Positions 1,816-40,894 of a DNA stretch of 46,564 nucleotides are shown here, one piece after another. Numbering within the stretch: the stretch's first letter is position 1; every line of letters starts with the position of its first letter. The translations under genes and the position numbers were made by a program. The DNA is from Candidatus Magasanikbacteria bacterium CG1_02_41_34 (GTDB lineage Bacteria > Patescibacteriota > Patescibacteriia > Magasanikbacterales > UBA922): positions 1-46,564 of the forward strand of contig MNVD01000016.1 in assembly GCA_001871445.1 (NCBI GenBank), written 5' to 3'. The notes under the pieces were generated by a model. That model saw only the letters and a program-made list of their open reading frames with translations, searched no databases and was not told the origin of the DNA.

Positions 1816-1850
1816 ATAACAAAAAATCCAGAAATTAATAAATCTAGAAA

Positions 1851-2208
1851 TCAACCGTGTTCTTTTATGTTTTGTATTTCTTTCCAAAACATCGCTCCGA
1901 TACCATCTGCTAATGTAAACATTTTTTTGTACTCTTCTTCTGATAATAATTTTTCAACATATATAAAATGAAGAAGGTACTTTGTTTCTTGAAGTGAAGC
2001 GTAGGATATATCTAAAAAAATAATGTCGTGAATTGTTTCTTGCACGCGCATACCCCTCTATATAATTGAGCACCACGGATAAGGATGCTCGGTTTATTTG
2101 AGATGTCATCCCATATTTTTCTGCTTTGGGGAAATTTTTTGTTTCACGGTATACTCCATGTGCCAAGGTGTTCATCTTTTGTTTAAGCCCCTCCTGATAC
2201 TCGTTCAT
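1851..2208 (-). pseudogene. Four-helix-bundle protein (23S rRNA IVS-protein family), split by a single-base frameshift
   Basis: ORF 1954-2208 (FPKAEKYGMTSQINRASLSVVLNYIEGYAR) and ORF 1851-2051 (FLDISYASLQETKYLL) are the two halves; removing one base of the A7 run at 2014-2020 gives a 118-aa frame (358 nt = 357+1). Confidence 0.8.
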
Positions 2209-2238
2209 ATTGTTTTCTTGTTTTTTTGATTTCTTACT

Positions 2239-2790
2239 TTATTCATTTTTATACAACACCATCCCTTGATGAAACCGCCCTACGTCAAATACTTCCTGTA
2301 CAACAAATCCATGCTCACGAGCCCACTGTTCTATATCTTGAAAATTTATAAACTGTTCATCTTTCGGCCCAAAGACCAATCCTTTTTTGATCCAGTCAAC
2401 TACAATCAATCGTGCTTTATCTTTGAGCAAACGGTTCACTTCTTCGAGTACTAGATGTCGCTCCTTGACATGCACGAGAATATTTACAAGGAATGCGACA
2501 TCTAGACTATGCTTTGGAATGGCAGTATGTCCTTCTTTTTCTATATCAGACCACACACTGTGCACATTCAAAAGACTAATACTCTTGGCACGTTGTTCTA
2601 TTTGCTGCAATACATTCTTCAAAATATCTACCGCATACATAATACCCCGATCGCCCAATATTTTTGCACACGGAAAGACGATATGCCCAGTCTGCCCACA
2701 ACCAAAATCAGCCACATGCATGCCAGGCTGGATCTGTGCTTTTTCAAACAAGATACGTGGATCTACCATTTGATTACCACTGTGATACAT
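2239..2790 (-). CDS. Class I SAM-dependent methyltransferase
   Basis: VADFGCGQTG motif I, YAVDI acidic motif II, DVAFLVNIL. Confidence 0.85.
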   Translation of the reverse strand: MYHSGNQMVDPRILFEKAQIQPGMHVADFGCGQTGHIVFPCAKILGDRGIMYAVDILKNVLQQIEQRAKSISLLNVHSVWSDIEKEGHTAIPKHSLDVAFLVNILVHVKERHLVLEEVNRLLKDKARLIVVDWIKKGLVFGPKDEQFINFQDIEQWAREHGFVVQEVFDVGRFHQGMVLYKNE

Positions 2791-14656: not shown

Positions 14657-15901
14657 TTACTCTTGTCGAAGTGCGGTAATAGGATCAAGTGATGCGGCAT
14701 GCTTTGCTGGAAAATATCCAAACACAAGTCCAATCACAACAGAAAATCCTGTACCTAAAATGACAGAAGGGAATGAAATGACAAACTTCCAATCAAATCC
14801 AAATGATCGGGCACCAAACGCAATAAGAAAGGATAAAAAAATACCAAGTGCAATGCCTGTTACTCCCCCAATAGCAGTAAGCACTATTGCTTCCACAAGA
14901 AATTGTGATCGAATATCGTGCTCTGATGCACCAATAGATTTTCTGAGACCTATTTCAAATGTACGTTCCACGACTGACACATACATCACATTCATAATCC
15001 CCACACCACCAACGATCAAAGAAATCGCTGCCAGCACAACCAACAAGGCTTGAATGCCAAAAAAAACGGTATTGATAAGATCAACAGATTCTTGTTGCGT
15101 TGTCACAGAAAAATCATCTTTCTCAGGGTCAGTGATATCATGCCTGTCTCGAATCAATGAACGAATTTCTTCAGCTGTCGCGTCTCCTTTATTTGCATCA
15201 CGCATCTGTGCAATCATAAAAAGTACATGATTGATACCCATCATTTTTTTTTGTGCTGTTTTGACAGGAATATATGCAATCTCATCATAATTAAAAAATC
15301 CCGTCGCGCCTCGCGCTTTCAATACACCAACAATACGAAACGACGTATCTCCTGCTTTTACATTTTTACCTATAGGATCATCATTGCCAAACAAGGTATC
15401 CTGAAGTCCAGATCCGAGAACAATCACTTGGTTGGCACCACTATTTTCTTCGTCAGTAAAAAATCTTCCTTGTTCAATTTCACTTCCCACATCAATTTCA
15501 ATATACGATGGTGTTACTGCAAAAAACGTCGGTTGTTTTTTTGCATCACCGTAGGACACCACTGCTTGTGTCGTCACACCAGCATACACATTCTTTATGT
15601 TGCTCAATTTTTTGATTGCATCTGCATCGTCAGTAGTGAGTGTCGTAATCGTCACACCTCGAACTTGGCTTTGTGCATTGCTGAGCGATGCTTTTCCTGT
15701 GCTAGGCACTTTTACTTCAATATCAATCCAATCATTGCCAAAACTATCGAGTTCTCCCATCACCAGTCCTTTCACACCATTGCCTGCAGACAATACCAAA
15801 ATGACCACCATGATACCGATGGTAATTCCAAAAATTGTCAGACTTGCTCTGGCCTTATTTTTTTTTATTTGATTGAATGCCAAACTGAGTGATTTATTCA
15901 T
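14657..15901 (-). CDS. MacB/FtsX-type ABC permease (copy 2)
   Basis: GIMNVMYVSVVERTFEIGLRKSIGA, FLVEA, PAKHAASLDPITALR. Confidence 0.92.
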   Translation of the reverse strand: MNKSLSLAFNQIKKNKARASLTIFGITIGIMVVILVLSAGNGVKGLVMGELDSFGNDWIDIEVKVPSTGKASLSNAQSQVRGVTITTLTTDDADAIKKLSNIKNVYAGVTTQAVVSYGDAKKQPTFFAVTPSYIEIDVGSEIEQGRFFTDEENSGANQVIVLGSGLQDTLFGNDDPIGKNVKAGDTSFRIVGVLKARGATGFFNYDEIAYIPVKTAQKKMMGINHVLFMIAQMRDANKGDATAEEIRSLIRDRHDITDPEKDDFSVTTQQESVDLINTVFFGIQALLVVLAAISLIVGGVGIMNVMYVSVVERTFEIGLRKSIGASEHDIRSQFLVEAIVLTAIGGVTGIALGIFLSFLIAFGARSFGFDWKFVISFPSVILGTGFSVVIGLVFGYFPAKHAASLDPITALRQE

Positions 15902-15925
15902 AACGTAGTTCTGTGTAATTATATC

Positions 15926-15954
15926 CGAAATGCGAACTGTACGAAATTACGAAA
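15926..15954. repeat. Left (ACGAAAT)n array flanking the GxxExxY gene
   Basis: CGAAATTACGAAA (15942-15954) is the exact reverse complement of 16382-16394. Confidence 0.75.
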
Positions 15955-15955
15955 C

Positions 15956-16363
15956 TTATGAACGTAGGTCATGATTAATAATACGTCTTGGATACGCCCC
16001 TTGCTGGGTAAAACATCCTATAATTGCCAATTTCAATTTTGTGGCAATTAAGTATTGTTTTGTCTGCTCTATCATAGCATGAGAAAGTAACTTTCCTCTC
16101 TTTAATTCTAAAATGATTTTGTCTTCAATCAAAAAATCTAAATAATACTTCCCCACTGATATTCCTTTATACGTCAACGGTACATAATACTGTTCTATAT
16201 ACGAAAGGCCTTTCTCTTTGAGTGCTATCGCGACTGCTTTTTGATAATATGCTTCTTTATGCCCTCCGCCAAGCTCTTTATATACGTCAAATAATGCACC
16301 ATTTATAGTATAGCTTAATTCAGGATACAGCAGATCTTTTTTCCATACATTTGATTTCATCAT
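15956..16363 (-). CDS. GxxExxY protein (predicted PD-(D/E)xK nuclease fold)
   Basis: GHKEAYY motif, YYLDFLIEDKIILELK; SD AAGGAGG upstream. Confidence 0.9.
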   Translation of the reverse strand: MMKSNVWKKDLLYPELSYTINGALFDVYKELGGGHKEAYYQKAVAIALKEKGLSYIEQYYVPLTYKGISVGKYYLDFLIEDKIILELKRGKLLSHAMIEQTKQYLIATKLKLAIIGCFTQQGAYPRRIINHDLRS

Positions 16364-16380
16364 ATACCTCCTTATTGCTA

Positions 16381-16412
16381 TTTTCGTAATTTCGCAAATT
16401 TCGTATTTCGTA
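16381..16412. repeat. Right (TTTCGTA)n array flanking the GxxExxY gene, inverted relative to the left array
   Basis: TTTTCGTAATTTCGCAAATTTCGTATTTCGTAC. Confidence 0.75.
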
Positions 16413-16414
16413 CA

Positions 16415-17644
16415 CTATTCATAATGGAGCGCATCGATAGGATCAAGTTGTGCCGCCCGTCTTGCAGGATACACACCAAAGACTAACCCAATAAGTGTGG
16501 TTACCACGAGAGAAACAACAATAGCACCAAACGATACAATAAACTGGTAATCTGGATATCCTGCCGCTTGAACACCTTTTGCGATACCAAACGCAAATAA
16601 TATACCAATAGCGAGTCCAATAATACCTCCCAACAGCGACAACACAATAGTCTCAATAAGAAATTGTTTCAAAATATCTTTATCAGTTGCACCAACAGAT
16701 TTCCTGAGCCCAACCTCTCTTGTTTTTTCTTGAACAGAAATAAGCATAATATTCATGATGCCAATACCACCCACAAAAAGTGAGACACCAGCAATCGCGA
16801 CAAGGAAAAATTTGAGAGCATTTGTAATCGTGGTAAGAATAGCGAGGGCATCAGCTGTATTACGAATAGAAAAATCTTCTTCGCCGTGTCTATCAATCAA
16901 TGTCTGTCGTATTTCCTCTACGGTTTGATCCAAATACTGTGTATCGTCCATTTGACTTCGAATAAACGTAATATGTCGCACCCCAAGCATATCGTATTGT
17001 GCCACTCGCAGTGGCATGATCACCGCGTTGTCAACGTCTTCAAAAATAGAACTTCCTTGTGTAGCAAGCACGCCAATGACACGAAATTGTTTTCCACCAA
17101 TTTTGACTCGCTCGCCTACTGGTTCACTATTACCAAAAACATCTTCTGCAACGGTGTTCCCTATCACAATCACAGGCTCATGAGCTTCATTATCTGAGGC
17201 GGTAAAAAATCTTCCGTCGCGAACAGTTACTTTTTCTATAATTTCATAGTCTGCATTTGCTCCTGTATACGAAACACTTTTACTTTCACTTCCCCACTTC
17301 AAAATTCCATTTCCTGTAATATACCCTGCTGCATACGCGAGATGCGATACATTATGTGTATCGAGTAGTGCATCTTTGTCTTCCTCCGTGAGCGTGGTAA
17401 TCACAATACCAAGTGCTTGTGCAGGCGGACCCGATGGGTCACTCGCACCAGCCAAGACCACAATCTGATCGGTTCCTCGTTTTTCCAACTGTCCAGTGAT
17501 CAAAGATTGAGCTCCTGCACCAGTACTCATCACAAGAATGACAGAAGAAATACCAATGATAAGCCCAAGCATGGTCAACATAGATCGTCGCTTGTTGATA
17601 CGAAAATTTTTAAGGGCTGTTTTGTAGGAATCAATAATTGTCAT
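16415..17644 (-). CDS. MacB/FtsX-type ABC permease (copy 1)
   Basis: RSMLTMLGLIIG, GIMNIMLISVQEKTREVGLRKSVGA, PARRAAQLDPIDALHYE; start MTIIDS at 17644 after SD AAGGAG. Confidence 0.92.
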   Translation of the reverse strand: MTIIDSYKTALKNFRINKRRSMLTMLGLIIGISSVILVMSTGAGAQSLITGQLEKRGTDQIVVLAGASDPSGPPAQALGIVITTLTEEDKDALLDTHNVSHLAYAAGYITGNGILKWGSESKSVSYTGANADYEIIEKVTVRDGRFFTASDNEAHEPVIVIGNTVAEDVFGNSEPVGERVKIGGKQFRVIGVLATQGSSIFEDVDNAVIMPLRVAQYDMLGVRHITFIRSQMDDTQYLDQTVEEIRQTLIDRHGEEDFSIRNTADALAILTTITNALKFFLVAIAGVSLFVGGIGIMNIMLISVQEKTREVGLRKSVGATDKDILKQFLIETIVLSLLGGIIGLAIGILFAFGIAKGVQAAGYPDYQFIVSFGAIVVSLVVTTLIGLVFGVYPARRAAQLDPIDALHYE

Positions 17645-20856: not shown

Positions 20857-21317
20857 GCTCTATACAACGTGATCGCTCGACCTCTGGGTCGAGAGGAAAG
20901 TCCGAACTCCTTCCCGACAGTGTCGGGAATCGTGATAGTGGGTAACACCCACCTGCCGGTATGTGAATATCTGGTACGGGCCAGTGCCACAGAGACAATA
21001 CTATCCCGACAGTGTCGGGAGAAACGTGAAAAGTGAACGGATGTTTTTATTCTATAGATAAAAGCTACTGTTCTCGTCTCGATAGCAATGTCGAGATGTG
21101 GTAAACCCTATCTGGAGAAAGTGCAGTGTTCCTTTGCTAAAGCTTCGAAACATAAACTTAATTACATATACATTGTATATGTATGGCGCTTGTGAGCCGT
21201 AGCTTTAGCGGAGGTTCAAAAAGTTAGCACGTGAAGATTTCATTAGTAATAATGAAACAAGAGAAATGATCACTCCCGACATCGTCGGGATACAAAATTC
21301 GGCTTATTGTATAGAGC
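20857..21317 (+). ncRNA. rnpB: RNase P RNA (type A-like)
   Basis: P1 GCTCTATACAA/TTGTATAGAGC, P2 GTGATC/GATCAC, P3 hairpin, GAGGAAAGTCC, GCCACAGAGA, GTGAAA, GGTAAACCC, P18 with GTAA tetraloop, ACAAAATTCGGCTTA. Confidence 0.95.
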
Positions 21318-21353
21318 AACAAAAAAACAGTCATGTAGACTGTTTTTTTGTTG
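21317..21353. terminator. Bidirectional terminator between rnpB and tRNA-Leu
   Basis: CAACAAAAAAACAGTC-ATGTA-GACTGTTTTTTTGTTG. Confidence 0.85.
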
Positions 21354-21437
21354 GTGCGCGGGAGAGGAGTCGAACCTCCATGCCCTTGCGAGCGTTACCA
21401 CCTCAAGGTAGTGCGTCTACCATTTCGCCACCCGCGC
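21352..21437 (-). tRNA. tRNA-Leu(GAG)
   Basis: GCGCGGG acceptor, TGG D-loop, anticodon loop TTGAGGT, long variable arm, GGTTCGACTCC, encoded CCA. Confidence 0.95.
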
Positions 21438-26005: not shown

Positions 26006-26380
26006 CTATACTCTATCTCGAAATCTTCCGAGTGTAATATCTACGGCATGATATATCCTTTGTATTGTTTCTTCTGGCAATTCTGCCTTCTTTGCAACAA
26101 TATGTGTTCTGTCTACAGTCTCGAGCTTATGGAGCATACAGATACCATCTTTCCCGAGACCAGTCTCTTCTTTGGGGAGCAGTACTTCATTTACAAATAC
26201 GTCATCGCCCTTTTTGTATGGTTCAACTTTTGCACAAATGACTGTTGGAAGCCCCTGATTCAATGCATCATCCTGAATAATCACAGCGGCATGTTCACGT
26301 GTTCTCTTTTCTTCAGAAAAAAGGACAATGTCACCCCGACGTATTGCTCCGCAGTACATGTTGTCAAAATCAAAGGACAT
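26006..26380 (-). CDS. PemK/MazF-like toxin
   Basis: IRRGDIVL, VIIQDDALN..LPTVI, ETGL.KDG..MLHKLETVD; follows a 64-aa ORF. Confidence 0.8.
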   Translation of the reverse strand: MSFDFDNMYCGAIRRGDIVLFSEEKRTREHAAVIIQDDALNQGLPTVICAKVEPYKKGDDVFVNEVLLPKEETGLGKDGICMLHKLETVDRTHIVAKKAELPEETIQRIYHAVDITLGRFRDRV

Positions 26381-26389
26381 ACATTAACA

Positions 26390-26584
26390 TTATTGTCTTG
26401 ATTTTCCAACTTTTTGTAACTCTTTTTCCATTTTTTCTATTTCTGCTTGATGTTTGTGTGACAAAATACATTCCTCTACAAATCGGCTACGCTGCCCATG
26501 TGGAAATGCTTTTCGAAAATAAGCAGCAACAGGCTTTGGGAGTTTGAGTGTCACTCGTTCGATTGTATCCACCACCTTTACCAT
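26390..26584 (-). CDS. Putative ribbon-helix-helix antitoxin
   Basis: RVTLKLP beta-ribbon, RSRFVEECI helix, 9 bp upstream of the toxin. Confidence 0.7.
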   Translation of the reverse strand: MVKVVDTIERVTLKLPKPVAAYFRKAFPHGQRSRFVEECILSHKHQAEIEKMEKELQKVGKSRQ

Positions 26585-38213: not shown

Positions 38214-38524
38214 TAGTTCTGGTTTGATGGTTTGCTGTTTTGGGAAAAGAGAATGACGAGCACATACTGCCCGGCATAAACATGTACTGTAGATACTACC
38301 CATATCTACAACACACGTTCATGCGTCAAAAAAGCAATATTGTATTGTTTGGGTCTCCACAGTCTCTGGGTGGAGTAAACTGGCGCCGAAGGGACGCCAC
38401 CATGAGACACCTTCGTTTTGCCAACGAAGAACAATAAGGATGTATACGGCATTGCATCCTCCAATTCAGATGAGTGAAATACTTCACTGTTCTGAATTGG
38501 ATGCAATGCATCATCTACATATAT

Positions 38525-38555
38525 AAAAACACTCACAATATCTGTGAGTGTTTTT
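38525..38555. terminator. Bidirectional terminator downstream of eno
   Basis: AAAAACACTCACA-ATATC-TGTGAGTGTTTTT. Confidence 0.8.
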
Positions 38556-38583
38556 TGTTATGTGTTACATGCTACGTGTTACG
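38556..38583. repeat. Heptamer array
   Basis: tgttatg-tgttaca-tgctacg-tgttacg. Confidence 0.65.
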
Positions 38584-38590
38584 TGAATGA

Positions 38591-39844
38591 CTACATCACC
38601 TCATCTTCTATCTGCATCAATCGATTATACTTCTCTACTCGCTCTGAACGAGACATCGATCCTGACTTGATATATTCTGCATTCACAGCAACAGAGAGGT
38701 CTGCAATAAAAGTATCTGCTGTTTCTCCAGAACGATGAGATACGGATACTGCATAGCCATGTTTTCGTGCAAGATAGATTGCATCGATAGTCTCAGAGAG
38801 CGTGCCGATCTGATTGAGTTTGATGAGCACTGCATTCCCTACTTTTTCATCAATCCCTTTTTGGATACGTTCGGTATTGGTTACAAACAAATCATCTCCT
38901 ACCACATGTACTTTCTTCCCAAGTTTTTTTGTTGCTATTTTCCAATTGTCCCAATCATCTTCTGCAAGCGGATCTTCGATAGAAATAAACGGGTATTTTC
39001 GTGTCCATCCTTCGAGCGTACGAATCACTTTATCTGCACGCCACCCGACATGCTTGTCGAGAAAATAGTAATTGCCGCTTTTGTAAAATTCTGACGCGGC
39101 AACATCCATAGCAAGCATCACGTGACGACCAGGTTCAAAGCCAGCAGTACTAATTGCCTTCATGAGAAATTTCAATGCTTGTTCGTTGTCGGTAAATTCT
39201 GGTGCATAGCCTCCCTCATCTCCAACACCTGTATTGAATTTTTTTTCTGCCAAGAGCTGTCCGAGTGTATGAAAAATTTGTGATCCCATGCGTACGCGTT
39301 CTTTAAACAATTTATGTTTTGGAACAATCATAAATTCTTGAATCGAAAGTCCATTGTTTGCATGTCGCCCACCATTGATAACATTCATGGTTGCCAGTGG
39401 CATGATCCATTTTTTTTCTGGCAGTCGGTATGCTTTTCGAATATATGCATACAGCGGTATTTTGGTCGATGCAGCAGCAGCACGACAGGCTGCGAGAGAA
39501 ACTGATAGAATTGCATTTGCTCCAAGTTTTTTCTTTTGCGGAGTACCATCAAGCGCAATCATCGCTTGATCGAGTGCACGCTGATGGAGTGCATCATGGC
39601 CTTTCAATTCTTTTGCAATGAGTGTATTTACATGCTTCACCGCTTTCAATACACCTTTGCCACCATAGCGCTTTGCACCATCTCGGAGCTCTACAGCTTC
39701 ATGCGCTCCAGTAGAGGCCCCACTTGGGACTGCCGCAATACCAACAGAACCATCTGCCAATGTAACAGTTGCCTCAATAGTGGGGTTACCACGAGAATCG
39801 AGAATCTCACGTGCGAAAATATGTGCGATGCTTGTCTTTTTCAT
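38591..39844 (-). CDS. eno: Enolase
   Basis: DSRGNPT, VPSGASTG, GDEGG, GDDLFVTN, SHRSGET. Confidence 0.97.
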   Translation of the reverse strand: MKKTSIAHIFAREILDSRGNPTIEATVTLADGSVGIAAVPSGASTGAHEAVELRDGAKRYGGKGVLKAVKHVNTLIAKELKGHDALHQRALDQAMIALDGTPQKKKLGANAILSVSLAACRAAAASTKIPLYAYIRKAYRLPEKKWIMPLATMNVINGGRHANNGLSIQEFMIVPKHKLFKERVRMGSQIFHTLGQLLAEKKFNTGVGDEGGYAPEFTDNEQALKFLMKAISTAGFEPGRHVMLAMDVAASEFYKSGNYYFLDKHVGWRADKVIRTLEGWTRKYPFISIEDPLAEDDWDNWKIATKKLGKKVHVVGDDLFVTNTERIQKGIDEKVGNAVLIKLNQIGTLSETIDAIYLARKHGYAVSVSHRSGETADTFIADLSVAVNAEYIKSGSMSRSERVEKYNRLMQIEDEVM

Positions 39845-40822: not shown

Positions 40823-40894
40823 AGAAATTAAAAAATTGAAATTAGAAATTGCTTTTAACAAAATTAATTTCTAATTTCCAGTTCCAAATTTCTA
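40823..40894. repeat. Inverted (GAAATTA)n / (TAATTTC)n arrays with no gene between them
   Basis: Perfect IR AATTAGAAATT (40840-40850) / AATTTCTAATT (40866-40876) inside degenerate arrays. Confidence 0.7.

Follow-up and report, generated by a model that had tools for sequence, protein, structure and literature searches.

How does a small nuclease gene come to lie between two paralogous permease genes, enclosed by inverted arrays of short repeats? The question is raised by a 46,564-nucleotide stretch of DNA (hereafter the 46.5-kb window) from a groundwater metagenome-assembled genome of Candidatus Magasanikbacteria, in the Candidate Phyla Radiation (CPR). A first-pass annotation, made from the letters of the window alone, had placed the gene in a general family of repeat-bounded cassettes that occupy the intergenic gaps of operons. 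Our analysis bears this out: about 80 CPR genomes share one pattern of flanks, with a repeat unit that varies. The closest known kind of element, which the first-pass annotation did not mention, is the 23S rRNA intervening sequence (IVS). Below we describe the cassette, its insertion site and its family, and then weigh what might maintain and move it.

A nuclease cassette bounded by heptamer arrays

The cassette gene occupies positions 15956-16363 on the minus strand, and encodes 135 amino acids from its first ATG or 134 from the second (16358-16360). Reading of the sequence places a Shine-Dalgarno motif, AAGGAGG, at 16367-16373 (minus strand), 3 and 6 nt ahead of the two in-frame ATGs, which agrees with the claim that the gene has a ribosome-binding site of its own. 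Both flanking genes are also on the minus strand and encode MacB/FtsX permeases (MacB_PCD and FtsX domains). The downstream host gene (14657-15901) encodes 414 amino acids. The upstream one (16415-17644) has 409 amino acids in the public record, with an open frame that continues to 17752 and a stop codon at 16415-16417. The two permeases are 37-40% identical to each other, and are paralogous, as had been proposed.

The nuclease gene is surrounded by a 38-nt inverted repeat (15917-15954 and 16382-16419, 79% complementary), the longest one detected in the window. Its core is the perfect 13-bp inverted repeat noticed at the outset, CGAAATTACGAAA, which occurs in exactly two copies in the window, at 15942-15954 (+) and 16382-16394 (-), with 0 mismatches. 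The inverted repeat search gave, in gene sense, a 5' arm of four (T)ACGAAA-type units (16382-16419, minus strand) and a 3' arm of four TTTCG-type units (15917-15954, minus strand). On the plus strand, the cores of the 3' arm are at 15927 (CGAAA), 15934 (CGAAC), 15942 (CGAAA) and 15950 (CGAAA), and the TTTCG cores of the 5' arm are at 16382, 16390, 16399 and 16406. The four CGAA(A/C) cores of each arm are thus spaced by 7-9 nt, and the unit is therefore a heptamer with spacers of 0-2 nt. Hence, of the (ACGAAAT)n arrays described initially, the inverted periodicity on both sides of the gene stands, but the strict repeat does not.

A direct repeat, TATTCATAA on the plus strand and TTATGAATA in gene sense, marks the ends of the element. 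One copy (15895-15903) contains the ATG of the downstream permease and the other (16416-16424) overlaps the last codons and the stop of the upstream permease. The copies are spaced by 521 nt and read TTATGAATA(G) at one end and TTATGAATA(A) at the other. The cassette is a promoterless element of about 0.5 kb that consists of 15904-16415 and one copy of the 9-10 bp duplicated junction. In an Rfam scan of the window, no family covered the arrays, and the sole matches were an RNase P RNA and one tRNA located elsewhere.

Entry into the permease junction

We retrieved 80 relatives of the downstream permease and mapped the state of the junction in each. In locus L098, where the upstream and downstream permeases are 81% and 84% identical to those of the window, the junction is virgin: it reads CATTATGAATAAATCA, with an 8-nt overlap between the TAA stop and the ATG. 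A virgin junction of the same type is found in L110 (57% and 56%). L096 (80% and 83%) is an occupied ortholog in which TA(C/T)GAATAA abuts both arm ends. Its cassette protein is 80% identical to that of the window, for flanks that are 83% identical. The junction is duplicated at the cassette ends both in the window and in L096. Two further relatives are empty: L097 (91% and 84%) and the closest relative, L095 (95% and 92%), where 14 nt, TATATATGCGTGGT, separate the stop from the start. Empty alleles between the two permeases, which the first-pass annotation had suggested looking for, do occur beside an occupied allele with a duplicated junction.

Judged from these alleles, the comparison shows that the cassette entered a formerly overlapping stop/start junction of the two permease genes, TTATGAATAA. 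A duplication of 9-10 bp of this junction, with one copy per cassette end, leaves both permease genes whole. The 14 nt of L095 could be a deletion scar made of the end remnants of the arms. The permease tree, ((window+, L095-), (L097-, (L098-, L096+))), where the signs indicate presence and absence of the cassette, would require either several losses or two entries into one site.

The permease|permease junction also hosts other elements. A small GIY-YIG gene occupies it in a 68%-identical relative (L103:1198-1788); the inverted repeat around this gene, GTCATTCCCGCGCAGGCGGGAATCCAC, is GC-rich and has a second copy on one side. In 73%-identical relatives (L099:2421-2495, and also L100) it contains an element of 73 nt, in which two GC hairpins lie inside outer inverted repeats, TGTAACTCA...TGAGTTACA.

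The cassette protein

The cassette protein matched PF13366 (PDDEXK_3; 3e-26, 92.4 bits, cut-off 22), its sole Pfam match, and TIGR04256 (GxxExxY protein; 1.6e-25, 89.7 bits, cut-off 35), which confirms the proposed family. The eponymous motif is G34-x-x-E37-x-x-Y40, and the residues E37, D76, E86 and K88 are invariant across 33 homologs. The AlphaFold2 model has a pLDDT (predicted local distance difference test) of 90.7, and its fold matches those of lambda exonuclease, Cas4 and MGME1. Matches in the fold search were to generic PD-(D/E)xK exonucleases, Cas4 and Hjc-like proteins, with template-modelling (TM) scores of about 0.5. A sequence search of the PDB with the protein matched nothing, and PADLOC returned only a marginal match to Cas4b (E = 0.0025).

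At 50% identity, GxxExxY proteins form at least 10,476 clusters, which makes the family a very large one. The literature on 'GxxExxY' or 'PDDEXK_3' that we searched consists of passing mentions only. Some members of about 265 amino acids (P0155, P0161, P0179, P0190 and others) have two tandem GxxExxY domains, and these fusions hint at a dimeric action of the family.

A cassette family across the CPR

To place the window cassette among its homologs we used 80 species-representative CPR loci, which carry 84 cassettes. The complementarity of the flanks exceeded that of all 20 shuffles in 65 of 79 CPR loci. Its median score was 21-22 for GxxExxY genes and 7 for 430 other open reading frames (ORFs) of the same loci, i.e., the inverted flanks of GxxExxY genes are not due to chance. 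A generic array detector found 285 arrays in 503 kb, and 29 once the sequence had been shuffled. There were 72 inverted array pairs, among which 54 had a spacing of 301-600 nt, where a small gene fits, and 11 were bare hairpins. Homologs in unrelated contexts were all preceded by about four (Y)CGAAA units and followed by about four TTTCG(R) units, tight on the neighbouring stop and start codons. These contexts were the orthologous permease site, the junction between CNNM and pseudouridine synthase genes, and that between LemA and M48 peptidase genes.

Cassette genes are co-oriented with their upstream neighbours in 70 of 72 cases and with their downstream neighbours in 64 of 67 (about 96%), whereas this is the case for 80% of adjacent genes in general. 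The median gaps around them are 56 and 45 nt, and a scan of these gaps for promoters and terminators gave no signal above chance. Taken together, the co-orientation, the ribosome-binding site and the lack of a detected promoter fit expression by read-through from the operon.

The heptamer varies between lineages (TACGAAA, TACGAAC, TACGAAT, TACAAAT, TACTAAT, TACAGAT, CTCTAAT and others), and this dialect tracks the clade of the protein. Paralogs with at least 70% identity have a common unit, and gene-bearing paralogs of the same genome are at most 77% identical. A single genome can have several dialects, e.g., LCEC01 has four (TACGAAA, TACGGAA, TGCGGAC and TACTAAT) and carries three cassettes at three successive junctions of an operon resembling type IV secretion systems (T4SS). 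In one Parcubacteria genome (L057:2150-4640), a PrgI/TraC-like (type IV secretion) operon has GxxExxY cassettes at three junctions in a row, each with a dialect of its own: TACGGAA, TACGAAA and TGCGGAC.

The LemA|M48 junction is a recurrent site. It carries a GxxExxY cassette in 12 of the 80 loci, in several CPR classes, and is empty in L182 and L184. L178 has a terminator-like hairpin there and L180 a solo array hairpin. In L183, which has exactly the LemA protein of the empty L182, it is occupied by a cassette with another cargo, a four-helix-bundle gene. Decayed copies, with short and interrupted ORFs, were found at L024 and L054.

Outside the CPR, we observed copies with different flanks when comparing L177:1380-1960 and L175:1458-1918. 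On a Fusobacteria plasmid, the copy lies between direct repeats of about 50 nt, which take in the ribosome-binding site of the next gene. The Treponema copy has a plain 16-nt inverted repeat. Hence, heptamer arrays are not universal within the GxxExxY family.

Sibling cargo and gene-less hairpins

GxxExxY genes are not the only ORFs with strongly inverted flanks. Besides further PF13366 genes, we found PF05635 (23S_rRNA_IVP) genes with other units, a small GIY-YIG gene with a GC-rich inverted repeat, and ordinary genes that lie between two such elements. Cassettes with the PF05635 four-helix bundle occur in the window and in L050, L053, L076 and L183. That of the window (1822-2250, minus strand; 23S_rRNA_IVP, bAvd-like) has inverted (T/C)AGAAAT-type arms at 1822-1854 and 2218-2250. 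It is the four-helix-bundle cassette of the first-pass annotation, which had rightly ascribed to it the same architecture and a different repeat unit. The MazF gene at 26006-26380 was considered as a candidate for this cassette and rejected. The frame of the four-helix-bundle gene is broken by a frameshift near a poly-T run, and is either a pseudogene or the result of a sequencing error. Directly downstream of the cassette lies a UPF0102/YraN-like PD-(D/E)xK gene (1435-1887).

Some elements have arms and no gene. In the window, a hairpin at 40823-40893 (no strand assigned) consists of (AGAAATT)4, a 3-nt loop and (AATTTCT)4. It lies between co-directional genes, beginning 35 nt past one stop and finishing 5 nt before the next start. 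It resembles a cassette in the four-helix-bundle dialect that lacks a cargo. An array of about four (TGTTACG)-like units at 38556-38585, just downstream of the gene 38591-39844(-), adjoins terminator-like hairpins at 38460-38501 and 38517-38563. Its unit resembles that of the GTGTTACGTG arms of the four-helix-bundle cassette of L183, and the array may be a remnant arm.

The sampled loci contain 11 solo hairpins. In L029 three gene-less copies, about 97% identical, lie at three junctions. The sequence of the window was present in 24 runs, all DNA metagenomes, in the form of contigs. Contigs of the source community connect both arms of the window cassette via a 10-nt loop. In four metagenomes the bin of the 5' arm had a depth of 137-377 for a baseline of 7-24, which indicates that the arm is multi-copy in the community. 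The gene-less hairpins look young.

Selection on the protein and complementarity of the arms

Between the window and L096, the proportions of non-synonymous (pN) and synonymous (pS) differences are 0.12 and 0.79 for the cassette gene, and 0.11 and 0.70 for the flanking permease. The array cores and their spacing can still be aligned between the two. Since this is so despite saturated synonymous sites, both the protein and the arrays are constrained by purifying selection.

The arms of a cassette match each other better than expected from a common unit. When spacers are included, the match score of a cassette's own arms is 30.1, against 20.8 +/- 3.9 for cross-locus pairs that share the unit, and the own partner is the best-matching arm in 13 of 18 cases. 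The complementarity of the two arms is thus under selection too. The dialect has changed in concert across all eight units while the cassettes stayed in situ. RNA folding, by both minimum-energy and centroid predictions, closes the ORF with the arm stem (z = -3.7). In the wobble test of arm mismatches we counted 66 G-T and 58 A-C pairs, i.e., there was no enrichment in G-U in the sense strand. The absence of this preference speaks against strong selection for an RNA stem and mildly favours pairing at the DNA level.

Comparison with known elements

An example of the closest known kind is the 23S IVS of Coxiella burnetii, which has 428 nt, terminal inverted repeats that form a 28-bp stem, and tandem heptamers (GACAGAT) upstream of a four-helix-bundle ORF (PMC4990558). 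RNase III cleaves it at the first repeat, and only hypotheses have been put forward as to where IVSs come from and how they move (PMC4990558). The window cassette resembles the rRNA IVSs of Coxiella burnetii, Leptospira and Salmonella in having an ORF of about 115-135 amino acids inside terminal inverted repeats with a stem of about 28-38 bp, co-directional in a transcribed unit, and sporadically present or absent. Its arms hold heptamers, as does the 5' arm of the Coxiella IVS, and its sibling cassettes carry the IVS family PF05635. It differs in lying between protein genes and not in an rRNA helix: the Rfam scans, which covered the window and 11 loci with large gaps, revealed no rRNA. Its cargo is a PD-(D/E)xK nuclease (PF13366) instead of 23S_rRNA_IVP (S23p), and the gene has a strong Shine-Dalgarno sequence and evolves under purifying selection, in contrast to the decaying ORF of Coxiella. 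Given the protein-gene flanks, the lack of nearby rRNA and the different cargo, we class the cassette as IVS-like and not as an IVS. The main text of a survey of CPR rRNA insertions reports LAGLIDADG, GIY-YIG and 23S_rRNA_IVP ORFs, and the term 'PDDEXK' is absent from that main text (PMC11270868).

Several types of mobile elements share part of this design. The homing genes of T4-like phages (seg/mob, 'intronless homing') are nuclease genes placed between conserved genes that remain unharmed, with empty sites in relatives. To our knowledge, they lack inverted periodic arms and gene-less derivatives. They spread horizontally, whereas the cassettes co-diverge with their host. Repetitive extragenic palindromes and their associated transposases (REP/RAYT, or REPtrons), as well as miniature inverted-repeat transposable elements (MITEs), also form extragenic palindromes at gene junctions, with inverted copies flanking a protein gene and hairpin-only copies multiplied within the genome. 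However, RAYTs are HUH/Y1 enzymes and usually single-copy, while the cassette protein is a multi-copy PD-(D/E)xK, the arms are heptamer arrays, and target-site duplications are not consistent. Of the features of transposons and MITEs with terminal inverted repeats, the cassettes have these repeats. A 9-10 bp duplication was seen at the window locus and its ortholog, and 60 loci showed no excess of flanking direct repeats over mismatched controls. Near-identical copies at multiple sites were seen for the gene-less hairpins (L029) and not for gene-bearing cassettes, whose paralogs do not exceed 77% identity.

Eukaryotic foldback transposons have terminal inverted repeats made of short tandem units, and exist as copies with a coding loop and as bare copies. 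They differ in size, host domain and enzymes, and the likeness implies no homology. Integron cassettes are promoterless, co-oriented small genes with imperfect inverted repeats that act as folded single strands. They have one attC at one end and require IntI and an attI platform, whereas here, where no search aimed at an integrase was made, the gene has repeats on either side and the cassettes occur singly, scattered in ordinary operons. The cassette lacks a defining feature of homing genes, REP/RAYT and integron cassettes alike, and its likeness to MITEs and foldback transposons lies in single features. Our search of the literature, including that on inverted repeats and mobile elements in CPR, found no description of operon-junction cassettes; curators' notes on TIGR04256 and TIGR02436 may hold related observations. 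The cassette is an IVS-like element outside rRNA, with PD-(D/E)xK cargo and lineage-specific heptamer dialects.

What might maintain and move the cassettes

The explanation we favour, to which we give an even chance, is that these elements are IVS-like cassettes, widespread in CPR, with heptamer sites for their own nuclease and a foldback of their arms behind their maintenance, deletion and occasional movement. The heptamers would be the cognate recognition sites of the PD-(D/E)xK protein of the cassette, which probably acts as a dimer or a higher oligomer. The two arms would pair with each other as a foldback, more plausibly in single-stranded DNA than in RNA, and the complex of protein and foldback would maintain, delete and occasionally move the cassette. 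Gene-less hairpins would be non-autonomous derivatives. In the transcript of the operon, the arms may also close a long stem around the ORF, as they do in rRNA IVSs. A pure stem needs no identical units, and this counts toward the heptamers being nuclease sites. The concerted change of dialect in situ, together with the presence of several dialects per genome, speaks against a single host factor. More tentatively, and we find this rather doubtful, the cassettes might be the 'free-living' form of the rRNA IVS, i.e., CPR-wide foldback elements in which each cargo protein recognises a co-evolving heptamer dialect on a foldback of single-stranded DNA or RNA.

Several observations weigh against the role of the cassette's own nuclease in its movement. 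The protein is a bare PD-(D/E)xK core without an obvious additional DNA-binding domain. The same architecture harbours a cargo, the four-helix bundle, that is not a nuclease, so the cassettes might in fact be mobilised by a trans-acting factor. The pairing of cargo and unit is not strict either, since the GACAGAT of the Coxiella four-helix-bundle IVS is close to the TACAGAT of the GxxExxY cassette of L068. Across 60 cassette loci, flanking direct repeats were not in excess over mismatched controls. Given this lack of a general target-site duplication, the one in the window is either site-specific or kept because the permease ORFs stay whole, and preservation of both ORFs could be the mere reason for which the 9 bp were retained. 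At the LemA|M48 junction, the identity of cassettes correlates with that of their flanks (r 0.59-0.71), much as LemA does with M48 (0.74). This co-divergence indicates that gene-bearing cassettes are old, mostly vertically inherited, and rarely move. Such rare movement is as compatible with a domesticated role as with a selfish one. The first-pass annotation had described a system that inserts genes, possibly mobilised by the nuclease. Insertion into operon gaps holds, but the picture of active hopping must be tempered because there is no general target-site duplication in the 60 loci, because cassettes co-diverge with their flanks (r 0.6-0.7), and because some cargo is not a nuclease.

The chief alternative is an RNA-level element, in which the arm stem of the transcript is cut around the ORF by RNase III or by the encoded nuclease, as in rRNA IVSs. 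Cutting would free the mRNA of the cassette and separate or re-couple the permease cistrons, and the arrays would be kept to limit polar damage. We judge it unlikely, and it is compatible with the explanation we favour rather than exclusive of it. It accounts for the co-orientation of about 96% of cassette genes with their operon, for arms that adjoin the upstream stop and the downstream start, and for the predicted closing of the ORF by the arm stem. Long vertical retention fits a tolerated or useful RNA feature, and the heptamer-bearing stem of the Coxiella IVS is indeed cut by RNase III (PMC4990558). Yet G-T is not enriched over A-C in the arm mismatches, and a stem alone requires neither four identical heptamers per arm nor the concerted change of dialects.

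The cassette gene could also be a free-standing homing endonuclease, which would cut the empty junction and be copied in by repair, with arrays that are incidental or regulatory. A small nuclease gene precisely between conserved genes, present or absent among close relatives, is what one expects from homing, and so is the repeated occupation of the permease junction (by GIY-YIG in L103) and of the LemA|M48 junction. But the cassette proteins co-diverge with their flanks, without horizontal spread, and the cassettes occupy many unrelated junctions. Homing also leaves unexplained why periodic inverted arms are conserved, why hairpins without a gene turn up at new sites and why some cassettes carry a four-helix bundle. 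We hold it improbable. We consider improbable as well a domesticated host function (defence, addiction module or regulation of the flanking operon) in which the nuclease acts with the arrays as operators and mobility was lost. The purifying selection on protein and arrays, the deep vertical retention at LemA|M48 in several CPR classes, and the sheer size of the family (at least 10,476 clusters) are in line with such a function. Against it, the flanking genes are very different (permeases, LemA/M48, T4SS, CNNM/pseudouridine synthase) and have no functional link, and close relatives manage without the cassette. Moreover, there are decayed copies (the frameshifted four-helix-bundle gene of the window, L024 and L054), and the marginal match to Cas4 (E = 0.0025) was the only one to a defence family.

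Other features of the window

The window encodes a bacterial RNase P RNA of class A at 20857-21321. With 465 nt for a model of 367 positions, it carries insertions. Right behind it, on the opposite strand, is a tRNA (21355-21437). The rejected candidate at 26006-26380 is a MazF/PemK-like toxin gene, and the 64-amino-acid ORF upstream of it (26390-26584) could encode the antitoxin. A 153-nt tandem repeat (5-374; 2.4 copies, 88% identity) lies at the edge of the window.

Implications

These results place the IVS design outside rRNA, at about a hundred ordinary gene junctions, which comprise 84 cassettes in 80 CPR species together with their siblings and the forms that lack a gene. Since some sites are empty or may bear deletion scars, and others hold gene-less derivatives or a swapped cargo, the question of the origin and mobility of IVSs becomes testable by comparative genomics and simple biochemistry. 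The cassettes provide a first functional lead for two very large families, the GxxExxY and the four-helix-bundle IVS proteins. For the annotation of CPR genomes, they explain recurrent small "hypothetical" genes and odd intergenic repeats. They also suggest the existence of sets of matched protein/7-mer pairs. If the more tentative reading of the cassettes as 'free-living' IVSs is correct, these sets would form a natural library of recognition pairs, and a nuclease would offer CPR operons a new route for insertion, for excision or for the self-excision of transcripts.

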